Assembly: GCA_010405405.1 (NCBI GenBank)
Contig: MU004230.1
Location: 2,142,627-2,206,626 of the forward strand
Origin: Microthyrium microscopicum
Lineage: Eukaryota
DNA: 64,000 bases
Direction: 5' to 3'
Position 1 is the first letter of the stretch. Each line of letters opens with the position of its first letter. Of this stretch, positions 35,094 to 42,125 are shown piece by piece. The notes under the pieces were generated by a model. The model saw only the letters and a list, made by a program, of their open reading frames with translations, had not been told where the DNA came from and did not search any database. Both the position numbers and the translations under genes were made by a program.

Positions 35094-37330
35094 ATGACGG
35101 CTCAAATAGCTGAGGCCAGAAAAGCTCTGGTTCTCTACGGCTCTGAGACTGGCAACGCACAGGATATTGCAGAAGAGCTAGGGCGGATATGTGAGCGTTT
35201 GCGATTTGCGACATCCGTTTGCGAGCTAGACAGTATCGATATTGTATGTTCCGTGAAATCATGTCTATGCTTGCCGGGTATGAGCCCAGACAACTCTTTG
35301 CGATGAATACACTTGAAAATAACATACTGACCAATAGTAGAGGCACCTGCCACGATATAAAATTGTGCTTTTCGTAGTTTCAACCACTGGTCAAGGTGAG
35401 CTGCCTATAAATTCTCGGAAGTTCTGGAAAGTTATACGCAGCGCCCGACTCCCTCCTGGTTGCTTGAAGACAGTGAGATTCTCTTCCTTTGGACTCGGTG
35501 ACAGTTCCTACCCAAAGTACGCCAAATTGCACGGTATATATGTAATGAGCCGACACTAATTTCAGCGCAAGGTTCAACTGGGCTCATAGGAAACTTTATA
35601 ATCGTCTAGTACAACTGGGTGCTCATGCAATATGTAATCGTGGAGAGTCCGATGAACAATTCCCTGATGGGTAGGTCTTCCTTGCGTACAATGCCGTTGA
35701 AATATGATGTACCAAATTTGTGTAGTACAATGAATCTAATGGTTCTGCTCTAGAATTGATGGTACATTTGTCCCTTGGTCTGTTGAACTACGAAAGCGAC
35801 TGCTCGAAGAATATCCCCTCCCTGATAGCGTGGAACCAATACCCGATTATATTCCAATCGAGCCCAAATGGACGCTTGACTTCGTGGATACAGACGCTGC
35901 TTCTCGTGAAACCAGCGCGTTACTGCCTCGCAATGGCGCCGGGACTGGCATCCAGGATCTTCCAACAACAGACTTGATCACAATACCAAATTCTCTGACT
36001 GCAACTATCGTTGCCAATACTCGGATAACAGCGGCTTCTCACTTTCAAGACACTCGTCATATTATTCTCACGATACCTGGAAAGCATGACTATCCTCCTG
36101 GAGCCACAGCGACCATCTATCCGAAGAACTTTCCTTCTGATGTCTCTGACTTTCTTTCTCTCATGCACTGGAACGATATTGCCGACAACCCCATCCAATT
36201 TGTTGCATCAACACCAGAAGCTGCTAGAGAATCTCGACCACCACTTGCTCCTTCGATTCTCCTTACGCTTCGGTCACTCCTGACCAGCCATCTAGACATC
36301 ATGGCCATTCCCCGTCGCTCCTTCTTCGGCCAACTTCAACAATACACCACCGATGAAATGCACCTAGAGAGACTTCAAGAATTTACCTCTCCAGAACTGA
36401 TAGACGAATTGTATGATTATACCACCCGTCCACGCCGCTCCATCCTTGAAGCAATCTCAGACTTTCCCTCCGTCCGCCTGCCATGGCAGAAAATATGCAG
36501 CGTCATCCCTATGATGCGTGGCAGACAATTCAGCATTGCCAGTGGCGGCCCACTTAAACATCCGTCCAGTCTGCAAACCATGCCAGCATCTCTTCCGATT
36601 CCTTGTGGATCCGCACTGGAGGCCACTGACTCAGAACCGGTCAATACACCTGCAGAGCCGACCGAAACACGCATCGATCTGCTTATAGCCATCGTCCGCT
36701 ACCGAACCATCATCAAGCGTATTCGTAATGGTGTAGCAACACGATATATCGCCACTCTTCAGCCTGGCACACAGATCAGCATCACTTTGCAAGATGGCGG
36801 TCTCGGTATCAAGCGTGATGGAAACCGTCTACCAGTAGTAATGGTCGCACCTGGCACAGGGGTCGCGCCCATGCGGGCACTGGCATGGGAGCGCTATCTA
36901 CATACAAGCAGTGCGATCAATGTGCAGGACTTGTTATTTTTCGGTTGTCGAAATAAGAGTCTGGACGAATACTTTGGCCACGAATGGAGTAATCTAGGCG
37001 TGGAAATGCTAGGGGCATATTCCAGAGACCAGGTAAGTTCGCAGTCACACGCACAGTCATATTATCATTTGCAGCTCATTCACATATTCATAGCGTGAGA
37101 AGGTATATGTGCAAGACATGATCCGTCAGCAGTCAGCGCGAGTATTTTCACTGCTTGCTGAGCGTGGTGGTATCGTGTTTGTGTGTGGTAGCTCTGGGCG
37201 CATGCCGCAGGCTGTCCGACAAGCTTTGACGGATGTGTTTGTGAAAGAGGGAGCGATGGTCATTGAGGATGCGGAGGAGTTTTTGAAGAGGCTGGAGAAG
37301 GAGGGCAGATATCTACAGGAGACGTGGTAA
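35094..37330 (+). CDS. TAH18: NADPH-dependent diflavin oxidoreductase 1 (Tah18/NDOR1)
   Basis: LYGSETGNAQD, STTGQGELP, FGLGDSSYPKFN, RQFSIAS, MVAPGTGVAPMR, FFGCR, VFVCGSSGRMP and C-terminal QETW; about four introns. Confidence 0.92.
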
Positions 37331-37731
37331 ATTCATTGGGAACTGCTTTTGGTAAATCGCAAAGTTTGTTCCTCTGAAGCTTGGTCCGATTCACTGCTGA
37401 CCGTTCAGTTCGTTGTCAGTTAACAATCTACTAGCCAATACATGACCGGATATATCACCTCTCATTGTAACTCTTCCAGTAATCTGATGGCTTATCCTAT
37501 CTCATGGCCAGTAAAATCATCCACTATAACAAACAGGAATCACATCACACATTGTGAAAAAGGTACAAGTCCGATACAATAAAAGGCTGAATATCACAAA
37601 ACTCTGCAAACCTACCGTCCGTCCATATACACCTGGTCGTCAGCTCCAACAGAAGTATTCAATCGAGGCCAACAAATATCACCAACAGTCCTATCCGAGC
37701 ATAGCAATCACTCATAAGTTAAATCCAAGCC

Positions 37732-38720
37732 ATGACAGCCATGGAATACATAAGGAGGCGCAACCCTTTCAGATCAATCACGCCAAACCTACCACAACAC
37801 GAAGACGAGTACAGTCGCCGGCGATCCAACAGCTTAAATCTCAACACTTCCAATAAGGCTGGTCCTTATCATAAGCAACCACATTTCAATCCACAATACA
37901 TCAAAATCGAGATCAACCCAAGACGACGTAAGCAGCAACTGAAAGTGAAAGTCCCAACAACTCATACTGACCATATTCGCCAGACATTCCACCTCCCCGA
38001 CAATCAACAATCATGTGGCTCAAGAGATTTTTTTGTGGTATTCACAAGTATATTCTCAAAGCTATATGGCGCAATCCAGCCCGAGTTTGCACCGTCTTGA
38101 TGATCGCCCTCGCGATCGCCAACCTAGTCATGATATTGGTGAAATATCTCAAGATCACAGGCAATACAGCAAATGAACGGCTTGATGATCCATTCTTCTG
38201 GATTTTCATTGGAACAATAACAGGCTTGCAGTGTCTTGCGGGGTGCATTCTGTCTTTAATGTATAATATCAAGCACAAGAAGGCTAGCAAACCAGCTGGT
38301 GGCAAACGTGATGATGCAGTGGAGGAAGCAAGAGATGACCTCAACGGAGGCGGTATAGGGGGGGTTACGAGGGAAGAACCTAGAGATGTGGTCTATGGAG
38401 GTGGCTCAGCTAGACTCGATGGAGCTAACACGGGTGGAATCGCACCACCTGCATACAATGAAGATGGCAAGGATTCATTCGAGTCGGAGGATCCTAGAGA
38501 TTCCAGAGATTCTAGGCATGGAGACGGCACAGGTGAATTCGAGAGGGAGGAAGCTAAAGAGTCTTTCAATGGAGGTGGCACAGGTGCATTCAATGGAGGT
38601 GGCATGGGTGGATTCCAGGGGGAGGAAGTCAGAAGTAGCATGGGCGGATTCCAGAGGGAGGAAGTCAGAGGTGGCAAGGAGTTCTTTGATGAGACGAGAT
38701 ACAGGTCGGAGCTACCTTGA
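37732..38720 (+). CDS. Tandem family copy A: orphan two-TM protein with Gly/Glu-rich tail (core ORF 38013-38720; possible 75-aa leader from exon 37732-37927)
   Basis: The intron at 37928-37983 (GTAAGC...CTGAC...CAG) joins the leader in frame to ATG 38013. Two hydrophobic helices (VLMIALAIANLVMILV; FFWIFIGTITGLQCLAGCILSLMY). Confidence 0.7.
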
Positions 38721-39558
38721 TTGATTGTGGTAGAAACTCGCGGGATACCAAAGTGCGCTTGTCCAAATTGTATTTCTTGGAATTATTGTAATAAGGCCCT
38801 GTGCATGCGCTTGTTATATGAGCAAATTTTGAAAAACAAGTTGCCCGAACCGTCTCCGGTATAACAGTAAACTGGTTAGTATGTTAATTCAGTGATCACG
38901 ATAGCATGTCCATATGGATGGAATGGTTATAGGGCGATGGCCTTCATCCATACCTGTTTTTGAGACTATCTAGCAAAGATGACACAAGAGATGGTTCTAA
39001 GATACATCATACAAGTCATAAATATGGTATACATTTCAACGTATGGAGGCGCCCCATGGGAAAAGGCTTGATCGAGTGACGAGAGGATTTATCTGCACAA
39101 TCAGAATATTCTATGGCTGTATTAGGTAATGAGATAGTAATGGCCCCGTCATGCAATCGTTTGTTGGCTCAACCAACACCCTGCAATCAAAGCCAACAGC
39201 TATCACTTCTACAACCCGTTGGTTACAAGATTCACCCAGACTATAGACTCAAACCGAAGGCCCAAACGATGTTCGTAGATGACTTTATAAAGACGCGTAT
39301 TCCTTTCAGATGCCACACTCCTACACTCCACAACAAGAAGACGAACTTAGTCGACGAAAAAGCAACAGTATCAATCTCAGCAATCCAAATAAGGCCGGAC
39401 CTTATTACACTCCACCACCAGATTCCAAGTCACAAGACATTAACGTCCACATCAAACCCCAAATACGTAAGTACTACCAGGAGATTAGGTCACGAAGAAG
39501 CGTACTGACTGTACTGGTTGACCGGCTAGGCTTACAACCTCATTAGCGGTCAACAATC

Positions 39559-39816
39559 ATGGGCTGCTCCTGTACCGATTTCTCCAAAGCTCATAACACC
39601 CGACCAATTCGAGCCCTGGCCTTTTACCTTTTAGGCCTGAATCTTCTCGCATTCGGTCTTCTTTCCTTCAACCTTGGCAGTGCCTACATTGCTCAAGTCA
39701 AAGCTGGCGCGGCGACAATCTGGGCCAAAGATACTGCAACTGCCGCCGTGGCAATCTTTTGGTCGATAGTCGTTGTCATCGTTCTCTTCTACGTTGAATA
39801 CAAGAAGAAAGTTTGA
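39559..39816 (+). CDS. Tandem family copy B: 85-aa two-TM protein
   Basis: caatcATGG context; preceded by an intron at 39467-39529 and a leader homologous to copy A. Two hydrophobic helices followed by a basic KKKV end. Confidence 0.65.
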   Translation: MGCSCTDFSKAHNTRPIRALAFYLLGLNLLAFGLLSFNLGSAYIAQVKAGAATIWAKDTATAAVAIFWSIVVVIVLFYVEYKKKV

Positions 39817-40764
39817 GCACATGGAGGTCGCCCCGTGAGGTGGAAACGATGTAGGTAGCCTAGCAAATTGGACATTGGCTTCGGGAGATTGGTGTGGCGC
39901 GTGTTTGGTCGATCCTTTGTGGAGTGTGAGAAGACTGAAGCGCGAGTGCTTATGATGGCACCGAATTCGAAGGTGTGAGGAGGGGGAGATATGCTGGCAA
40001 TATCTAGTAGTGATTGTCGTATGAAGCGTTCTCAAATAACATAAAGGTGGGCGGAAAATCATGTTGCTTATTGAAGTCCTAGTCTAGTCCGATCACAGAA
40101 GGACGAGCGAGTAGTTGCAAATGTGTTATTTTCTTCCAAATTGATAATGGTCTTTTGGTGATATTCAAACCCTTGTCTTTTTGAATGCATAGTGAGCATT
40201 TTCTCTATATCCCATGTTATCTATCGCGCCATAGCCCGGATGACTCTTATTCATATGTAAAGAAAATTTGGCGTATACAGTCATTACTCGCTTCATGGAG
40301 AAATAGGAATCCAGTGACGAGATGCGTTCCGACCGCGATATAGATCTCTCGAATCAAAGAACACGATGATAAAACTCCCATCTACACTGTCCGTTGCCTC
40401 AATCAAAAGCGATCAATCGAAGCCAACGGCTAGAGCATCACATCTCAGACTTGTTGGTCTCAAAAGTCACCCAGACTATAGCCTCAAACGATCTTCACGG
40501 TCAATTATATTAGAAGACGCTATCCCATTAGATCCGATACACTAACTCTACATCATCAAGACAAACACAGTCAACAAAGACGCAATAGTATCAATCTGAA
40601 TAAGGCCGGACCTTAATATACACACCGAATTTCCAAGTCACAAGATAGTAACGTTCTCATCAACACACAACAACGTATGTGCTAAACGGAGATTAAATAA
40701 TGGAGATATACATGAATACTTACTGTATTGTCCAGGTATACAATCTCATCAACGATTCAAGATC

Positions 40765-41013
40765 ATGGTTTGCACAGACATGAGAGAAAACAAAGTCGCG
40801 ACCATGTACACCATCATATTGTTGATTTTCTTGGTCAACTTCACTCTTATTGTGATCAGAACACACAAACTGGTCAAACACGGAATTATTCCAGCAGATG
40901 GTCCTGTGCTTTGGATATGTATGTCTATTAGCTGGGTCGCAATACTCTTCCTCAGCTGCGGGATGTCGGTAGTACACCACAAGGAAATGGAACGAGCAGG
41001 GTCCCCAGTTTGA
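40765..41013 (+). CDS. Tandem family copy C: 82-aa two-TM protein
   Basis: gatcATGG context; preceded by an intron at 40675-40735 and a leader homologous to copies A and B. Two hydrophobic helices. Confidence 0.65.
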   Translation: MVCTDMRENKVATMYTIILLIFLVNFTLIVIRTHKLVKHGIIPADGPVLWICMSISWVAILFLSCGMSVVHHKEMERAGSPV

Positions 41014-42125
41014 GAACATTCTGCGAACTTGATCTTGTGGACATGATTTGGATTGAAGAGATGTTGGTATGGCTGCGAAGATGAGTCAGTTTGTGTCTAA
41101 TTTCGAAAACGATGTCTGGTTACATCCTTGTTCATTTCTCGTCATATTCGAGGCTTGCATGACTGTATGAATGCCGGGCGTAGCTTTTGATTCAGATAAA
41201 ATGGGATGAAAAACCTCTCTTGTTATTTACTGACTGATAGCAAGTTCATTGACGTTTTGTGGATAGTAGAAACGTACCCAGGCATTCTCTATTGATACTT
41301 ATCCGTGCTACTATTCTTGATCAGTCGAGTGGTTTTGATGCAGGTTGTAGTCAATTCATACAGTTGTCAGTAAATGAAATCGCCGTTGAAGAAAGTGGTA
41401 TCATGGCACATGGCAATGTCGATCCGCAAGTCTAGACCAAACAAGCGAACCATTTTCTGCATGGAACACCTCACAGAGCTCTAGAAGAAGTTGTTGGACG
41501 AACCAGAAATCAGATTCTGCAAAGGTAGTAAATTTTAGTCAACCAGGTGGGTGTGCTTGCAGCAACACTTTGCTTTTTCTCCCACATTTCGGGCGACGCG
41601 ATGCATGGTACGCCTCCTACCTCTGGTGTGCATTCTGAGCTTCAGGGTCAGACTTTCTGATTTTATTTTTGAGCCTTCCAGCTTGCGTGCTAATTGGCTG
41701 AATAACTAGCGGGGCTAGGCTTTTCAACTATTGCGTGCAGCCGTCACGTGAACTTCTCTCAGCTAGCTGTTTGATTGGCTGAAATTAAGTTTAGAAAATA
41801 AAGTCCAAAAGCTGGCCCCTGAAGCTCAGAATGCACACCAGAGGTACTAAAACCACTCACGCCCCGCTCCATCGACAGAGAATTTTCTTTCTCCTCTTTG
41901 TCTACAACTTTGACTTCTTGTCTATCCAATTTATCCTCCGCGAGCGACTTCAGAGCTTTGCGCGCGCGTTGTTACATAAAGCTCTTCTTCATCGATATCA
42001 AAGTATTCTTTTGCGCCACCAAACACCAACCCCCGCCAAACAGGGCCTAACGATCTTCAAGCAATCCTTGCAACCAATTATCGATCATCTGAGCCTTGTG
42101 CTTGAGCATTTCAGCCTTGCCGACC

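Follow-up and report, generated by a model that had tools for sequence, protein, structure and literature searches.

The Sk wtf4 gene produces a poison as well as an antidote by means of two transcription start sites, codes for a protein in which six helices are predicted and carries two in-frame ATGs in exon 1 (PMC5478261). The poison promoter of wtf4 was assigned to the 230-bp intron 1, which contains a Mei4 FLEX motif (PMC9762604), and the short transcript starts inside this intron. The antidote-specific N-terminal tail of wtf proteins acts through [L/P]PxY motifs that bind ligases of the Rsp5 family (Rsp5/Pub1; PMC10721834). A second system suited for comparison is yeast Sna3p, a small protein in which two transmembrane domains are accompanied by a PPAY motif in the cytoplasmic C-terminal part; this motif binds Rsp5p and directs sorting (PMC2171029). 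The locus compared here with these systems lies within a window of 64,000 nucleotides, by which we mean the whole stretch of DNA that was analyzed (Microthyrium microscopicum contig MU004230.1, assembly GCA_010405405.1, positions 2,142,627 to 2,206,626 of the forward strand); all positions below are counted from its first letter. An earlier note on this DNA had suggested that one gene of the locus, copy A, could be subject to a dual-isoform control reminiscent of wtf. From the data presented below it is probable that copy A is an ordinary two-exon gene with a single product, belonging to a species-restricted tandem family.

Copy A consists of a leader (37732-38012) and a downstream ORF (38013-38720) and is, like its two relatives at the locus, read from the plus strand. 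Coding exon 1 (37732..37927) comprises 196 nt, corresponding to 65 codons plus 1 nt, contains two in-frame ATGs (37732 and 37741) and is identical to the N-terminus of the deposited protein KAF2674785.1. It is followed by a phase-1 intron of 56 nt (37928..37983, GTAAGC..CTGAC..CAG) and by the coding part of exon 2 (37984..38720). The first 29 nt of exon 2 (37984-38012) form the end of the leader, which after splicing amounts to 75 codons (225 nt) and shares its frame with an internal ATG (38013-38015, Met76), the junction reading ...NPRR-H-IPPPRQSTI-MWLK. This reading frame, starting with ATG 37732 and passing across a GT..AG intron of 56 nt, had already been proposed in the earlier note and was confirmed by direct reading, by an RNA joint and by the deposited protein. 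The spliced ORF encodes 310 aa and terminates at the stop codon at 38718-38720; without splicing, the frame closes after 122 aa. The NCBI entry KAF2674785.1 ("hypothetical protein BT63DRAFT_420061" of Microthyrium microscopicum, 310 aa) is identical to the spliced translation and thus, the proposed long isoform is the gene model that had already been deposited. The exact 235-aa form starting with Met76 has no database record, while the 310-aa form is recorded.

Besides the leader end and Met76, exon 2 of copy A encodes a hairpin of two helices and a tail rich in Gly, Glu, Arg and Asp. The two membrane helices were predicted by Kyte-Doolittle analysis, the first one at 38085..38141 (aa 100-118; peak 2.79 in a 19-residue window), the second one at 38202..38258 (aa 139-157; peak 1.89). 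By a motif scan, PPAY was detected at 38445..38456 (aa 220-223). It is the sole [L/P]PxY motif of the protein and, due to its position in the C-terminal tail, common to any long or short form. The Gly/Glu-rich tail is encoded by six imperfect repeats of ~36 nt (38347..38667), which were recognized by repeat finding (61-100% identity) and which do not exist in the other two copies. The RRxS site of the leader, to which the earlier note had drawn attention, was found as RRRS at 37816-37827 (aa 29-32) and has its counterparts in RRKS of copy B and RRNS of copy C.

Contrary to the two copies that had been assumed before, repeat finding and alignment disclosed three tandem units. Copy B comprises a leader at 39269-39558 and an ORF at 39559-39816, copy C (unit 40418-41013) a leader remnant at 40491-40764 and an ORF at 40765-41013. 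Similarity between the copies, as determined by blastn, sets in approximately 100 nt upstream of the first ATG and breaks off at the internal one, the alignments ending at 38015-38020 in A, 39565-39567 in B and 40767-40773 in C. Global alignments of the three pairs revealed identities of 0.61-0.70 for exon 1 (shuffle maximum 0.57), 0.57-0.61 for the intron (shuffle maximum 0.55-0.58) and 0.60-0.70 for the 29-nt leader part of exon 2 (shuffle maximum 0.65-0.66). By contrast, the first 240 nt of the ORFs (0.48-0.51) were as identical as shuffled sequences (mean 0.50-0.51), and the same was true for the 200 nt past the stop codons (0.50-0.53, shuffle mean 0.50-0.52). When translated leaders were compared, those of A and B gave an alignment with z = 15. 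For the products of the downstream ORFs, a weak similarity was observed between A and C (z = 3.8, equalled by 4 of 500 shuffles), while A-B and B-C showed none, since 89 and 170 of 500 shuffles, respectively, reached the score. All three downstream ORFs encode two hydrophobic segments in the same arrangement (predicted helices, Kyte-Doolittle).

The leader exon of copy B (39269..39466) begins with an ATG which aligns with ATG 37732 of copy A, but a deletion of 1 nt approximately 19 codons past this ATG shifts the frame. A new ATG at 39310 opens a leader ORF of 57 aa, which is the annotated protein KAF2674786.1. The intron of copy B (39467..39529, 63 nt) has the same phase as that of copy A and was seen as a joint in an RNA contig. 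Behind the intron, an in-frame TAG (39544..39546), located 12 nt before the ATG of the downstream ORF, separates the leader frame from the membrane ORF. The latter (39559..39816) encodes 85 aa with two predicted helices and has a codon-usage score of 0.216. Its product starts with MGCSCT, a sequence which we take to resemble an N-myristoylation/palmitoylation signal. On the spliced RNA of copy B (39248-40119), ORFs starting with the ATGs 39269, 39310 and 39559 stand in a row; the first of them encodes 100 aa, is off-frame and overlaps the start of the hairpin ORF. In copy C, the leader remnant (40491..40764) was identified by alignment. Its start codon is replaced by ATC, and it contains deletions of 3 and 9 nt and a TAA in the leader frame. 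An intron-like stretch (40675-40735, GTATGT..CAG) is retained in the sole contig covering it. The downstream ORF of copy C (40765..41013) encodes 82 aa with two predicted helices, is unannotated and has a weak coding score (0.014). Judging from these lesions, copy B (frameshift and TAG) and copy C (lost start and TAA) are best explained as decaying or remodelled copies. In the deposited annotation, the three copies are treated inconsistently: A appears as a fusion, B is represented solely by its leader ORF of 57 aa, and C is missing.

As source of RNA, one public run (X1) was used, whose designation as RNA is only a guess and which matched 69% of the sampled words of 37300-41100. Its contigs carry GT..AG joints; hence the run derives from spliced RNA and the introns of copies A and B are real. 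Copy A is spanned by a contig of 3829 letters, in which 37300-37927 and 37984-38765 are represented with zero differing letters and which contains the joint 37927|37984 (GT..AG), skipping 56 nt. Since it extends into the upstream gene encoding a diflavin reductase-like protein, it is silent on where the transcript of copy A starts. The contigs over copy A, in which transcript starts cannot be seen, displayed only the spliced path of the long form. Moreover, as contigs drop rare variants, a minor 5'-truncated mRNA of copy A would escape notice. The continuity of this contig with the upstream gene (37300-37731; stop codon at 37328-37330) across a 400-nt spacer may be due to either overlapping transcripts or read-through. 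The contig over copy B reaches from 39248, directly beside adapter letters, to 40119 and includes the joint 39466|39530 (GT..AG), by which 63 nt are skipped. Position 39248, lying 21 nt upstream of the first ATG of copy B (the homologue of 37732), gives a weak hint at the 5' end of the transcript. Over copy C, a single contig exists (40535-41072), which is unspliced. The RNA contigs fork at 41072|41073 (within 41043-41100). At this point, CT stands on the plus strand, corresponding to an AG acceptor on the minus strand, and the RNA over copy C may thus be antisense. A 30-letter consensus of the loose end at 41072, which is unreliable (agreement only 0.6), was absent from both strands of the window. 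The stretches 38824-39204 and 40221-40474 are without X1 contig cover, and nothing is inferred from these gaps.

To what extent the leader is coding sequence can be estimated from the positions at which the copies differ. In exon 1, differences at first, second and third codon positions numbered 16, 21 and 30 (of 65 each) between A and B, 21, 16 and 36 (of 62, 61 and 61) between A and C, and 11, 19 and 25 (of 62, 61 and 61) between B and C. The excess at third positions yielded Fisher p values of 0.017, 0.0002 and 0.026, respectively. In the frame of copy A, dN/dS calculated by the method of Nei and Gojobori (NG86) was 0.33 (A-B), 0.15 (A-C) and 0.36 (B-C); these values are rough, as they derive from three sequences with a dS of 0.9-2.6, which is near saturation. 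The two shifted frames gave dN/dS values of 0.77-2.2 and contained three to eight stop codons. The coding signature claimed in the earlier note was thereby corroborated, since third-position excess and a dN/dS below 0.4 were restricted to the A frame, and all of its synonymous A/B pairs (CGC/CGA, CGG/CGA, AGC/AGT, GCT/GCC, GGT/GGA) were recovered in the alignment. Its statement that most indels are multiples of three held only in part: between A and B, exon 1 shows one indel of 3 nt, in agreement with the claim, and the 1-nt deletion in B, which breaks the frame; when copy C is added, four of five exon-1 indels are multiples of three. Two further measures were less clear. The codon-usage score of exon 1 of copy A is low (0.069), the 5-95% range of the training set being 0.009-0.39, and the copy-specific changes by codon position (A 11/12/18, B 3/10/8 and C 8/9/16; chi-square p = 0.35, 0.16 and 0.18) are too few for a meaningful test.

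The first 19 leader codons of the three copies align in the A frame (YIRRRNPFR in A, FIKTRIPFR in B and YIRRRYPIR in C). All copies have kept the phase-1 intron and the 29-nt leader part of exon 2, so that the leader frame matches the frame of the downstream ATG in each of them. These patterns indicate that the leader is coding sequence, at least ancestrally. Alignment of the whole leader in the A frame, together with the conserved intron phase and the 29-nt part, also points to an ancestral ORF that was fused, and since the leaders of B and C are broken, the ancestral gene most likely possessed the fused long ORF. The dS values of 0.9-2.6 imply that the duplications are old and that neutral sites are near saturation, which can alone explain why a weakly constrained hairpin has become unalignable.

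Relatives of these proteins were searched for in several databases. An exhaustive HMMER search with the leader resulted in two matches, the protein itself and copy B. When the leader was compared with longer proteins, one of five candidates matched, which was the protein itself (65-aa query of exon 1, 100% identity), and the comparison of the whole copy A protein with proteins of similar length likewise gave one match among 921 candidates, again itself. Among shorter proteins, no candidate was obtained for the hairpin core. The ESM Atlas did not contain a usable match by features and its structural rows all had a TM of 0.24 or less; its own model of the protein is poor (pLDDT 0.48). In Pfam-A no family was found for the 235-aa form and the leader (E up to 1) nor for the 310-aa form (E up to 0.01). 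Pfam holds a WTF model as well as a model for the Sna3/Pmp3-type family of small hairpin proteins; the profile of the latter family gave no match at E values of up to 1. Going by these protein database searches, the gene is best explained as a member of a three-copy tandem family restricted to Microthyrium microscopicum. For the ORF of copy B, residues 16-72 (39604-39774) matched positions 186-242 of the Pfam family Ammonium_transp with 23.2 bits, which is exactly the curated cut-off. A phmmer search of this ORF against PDB sequences gave no matches at E up to 1. The match, lying at the cut-off and having no phmmer backing, was rejected as probably compositional; alternatively, it may represent a captured transporter fragment.

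The locus is flanked by two housekeeping-type genes, which code for the diflavin reductase-like protein (FAD_binding_1, NAD_binding_1) and an SLC35F-type protein. Between copy C and the SLC35F-type gene, an inverted repeat of 52 nt is located (41618-41846), whose arms are 87% complementary and 125 nt apart. It includes an internal direct repeat (41679/41760) and resembles a miniature inverted-repeat element.

As an ordinary single-product gene, copy A would be transcribed from a start upstream of ATG 37732, and the 56-nt phase-1 intron would then be removed. Translation from ATG 37732 or 37741 would lead to one main product of 310 (or 307) aa. This product is predicted to begin with a basic, Pro-rich cytosolic region of approximately 99 residues, including the conserved RRxS, followed by the two-helix membrane hairpin and by a cytosolic Gly/Glu-rich tail of approximately 150 residues with one PPAY. 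Because basic residues flank both predicted helices, both tails are presumed to be cytosolic. Met76 would be an internal methionine inherited from the ancestor. The N-terminal exon would be under purifying selection, while the hairpin would have diverged beyond alignment. As its most likely role, the protein may, by analogy with yeast Sna3p, reside as a small hairpin protein in endomembranes and recruit a ubiquitin ligase of the Rsp5/Nedd4 type through its cytosolic PPAY. This idea is based on one four-residue motif, and by our own arithmetic such a motif occurs by chance in a protein of this size with a probability of roughly a few percent. As things stand, the importance of the locus is limited, since the gene model had been deposited before and the leader represents nothing but normal coding sequence of an N-terminus. 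The locus is of some use as a compact and clear instance of a tandem family with a narrow taxonomic range, in which an exon is under purifying selection and the membrane part is unalignable.

It seems unlikely that copy A gives rise to two isoforms, of 310 aa and of 235 aa (from Met76), either through leaky scanning or because transcription has a minor additional start within the gene, and without selfish drive. In that case, the role of the RRxS-bearing N-terminal region would be to modulate stability, sorting or activity of the hairpin. Such an arrangement would fit the context of ATG 38013 (ATCATG, with A at -3), which is conserved in all three copies, and the fact that in B and C the equivalent ATG opens the sole remaining membrane ORF. 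On the spliced RNA of copy B, leader and hairpin exist as separate ORFs, the latter with a score typical of coding sequence (0.216), so that a hairpin may be viable in the absence of its leader. Between 37744 and 38012 no ATG is present in any frame; however, this is expected from the A/C-rich composition of the stretch (P = 0.085 for the genomic and 0.52 for the spliced sequence). If the start of copy A corresponded to that of copy B (39248, at a distance of 21 nt from the first ATG), a very short 5' UTR would result, and such 5' UTRs favour leaky scanning. On the other hand, both in-frame upstream ATGs (37732 and 37741) have a purine at -3, the second one also a G at +4. In addition, the contigs, in which starts are invisible, contained one RNA path, and the 235-aa form is without a database record. 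The dual-isoform control suggested in the earlier note is not supported by these data.

Likewise unlikely is the assumption that the leader acts mainly as regulatory RNA, i.e. as a 5' UTR or uORF with a palindrome, and that the hairpin, beginning at 38013, constitutes the functional protein, so that the continuity of the frame through the copy A intron would be secondary. It would be compatible with copies B and C, in which no open frame leads from the leader into the hairpin, and with the palindrome, which is the best-conserved block of the leader. This palindrome (ATAAGG-CTGGT-CCTTAT, 17 nt, 37853..37869 on the plus strand) encodes NKAGPY and recurs in B at 39388-39406 and in C at 40601-40615, with the loop CNGGN in all three copies. 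The RNA hairpins formed by it are weak (-3.7, -5.5 and -3.3 kcal/mol), and with z values of -0.61, -2.56 and -0.87 only one of the three was clearly better than its shuffles. The palindrome varies at two positions, both of which are N positions of the loop and synonymous third positions. Thus, coding constraint alone accounts for them. Folding of the leaders into a consensus RNA structure likewise gave a weak result (-9.04 kcal/mol for 327 columns; covariation term, +0.23), and a search of Rfam with the leader yielded no matches. The confinement of the third-position excess and the low dN/dS to the A frame also speaks against a leader whose main role is that of an RNA.

A further conception, which we regard as very improbable, is that the copies form a natural series composed of two modules, a conserved cytosolic leader and a hypervariable two-helix membrane hairpin, which are either joined or separated. 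Copy A would then be the fused state, copy B the split state (57-aa leader ORF and 85-aa hairpin ORF on one spliced mRNA) and copy C the hairpin only. If the hairpin were harmful on its own and were restrained by the leader, which would act in cis in copy A but in copy B either in trans or owing to read-through of the stop codon, this would amount to an independently evolved toxin-and-control family in a filamentous ascomycete, with a wtf-like way of working but unrelated to wtf. Should a short leaderless hairpin be made and be toxic, the locus would become a candidate case of poison-antidote logic based on a single gene having arisen in fungi a second time and independently.

That copy A is itself a wtf-like driver, whose short hairpin is toxic and whose long form is retained as neutralizing agent in the spores that inherit it, is extremely improbable, since the locus lacks every wtf feature that could be tested (helices, leader PY, intron, FLEX, Pfam). 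Copy A shares with the longer form of Sk wtf4 and cw9 an extra N-terminal region, presumed to be cytosolic in copy A, from an upstream coding exon with two in-frame ATGs, and a membrane protein family that is species-restricted, tandemly duplicated and fast-diverging (PMC5478261, PMC10721834); a PY motif also occurs once in the copy A protein. There are several major differences, however. The copy A protein has two hydrophobic segments by the Kyte-Doolittle criterion, while six helices are predicted for Sk wtf4 (PMC5478261). No [L/P]PxY was detected by the motif scan in the 75-aa leader of A or in the 57-aa leader ORF of B, although these motifs define the antidote function (PMC10721834). At 56 nt, the intron of copy A is too short for a promoter of the wtf type, which in wtf4 resides in a 230-bp intron (PMC9762604); the copy A intron does not contain an ATG, and the FLEX motif (GTAAACA/TGTTTAC) is absent from 37300-41100. 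The contigs, silent on starts, display one transcript path, the copies are situated between two housekeeping-type genes and no transposon-like ORF was seen in 36500-41000. As regards a relationship to Wtf proteins, there was no Pfam match and the database searches returned only copy A itself and copy B. The resemblance to wtf goes no further than the combination of a membrane protein and a coding exon upstream, as it exists in any gene with an N-terminal exon. Drive, i.e. transmission bias with killing of those spores that lack the gene, is a feature of wtf.

Compared with Sna3p, the copy A protein is distinguished by its length of 310 aa, its 99-residue N-terminal region and its repeat-rich tail; to our knowledge, Sna3p has neither such an N-terminal region nor such a tail. 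What both proteins have in common is an architecture, namely a two-helix hairpin and a cytosolic C-terminal part with PPAY, predicted for copy A and described for Sna3p (PMC2171029). Binding of an Rsp5-type ligase and sorting into multivesicular bodies are candidate properties of the copy A protein solely by this analogy. With one short motif and the shared architecture as its basis, and with no family membership claimed, Sna3p may be regarded as the closest working analogy for copy A.
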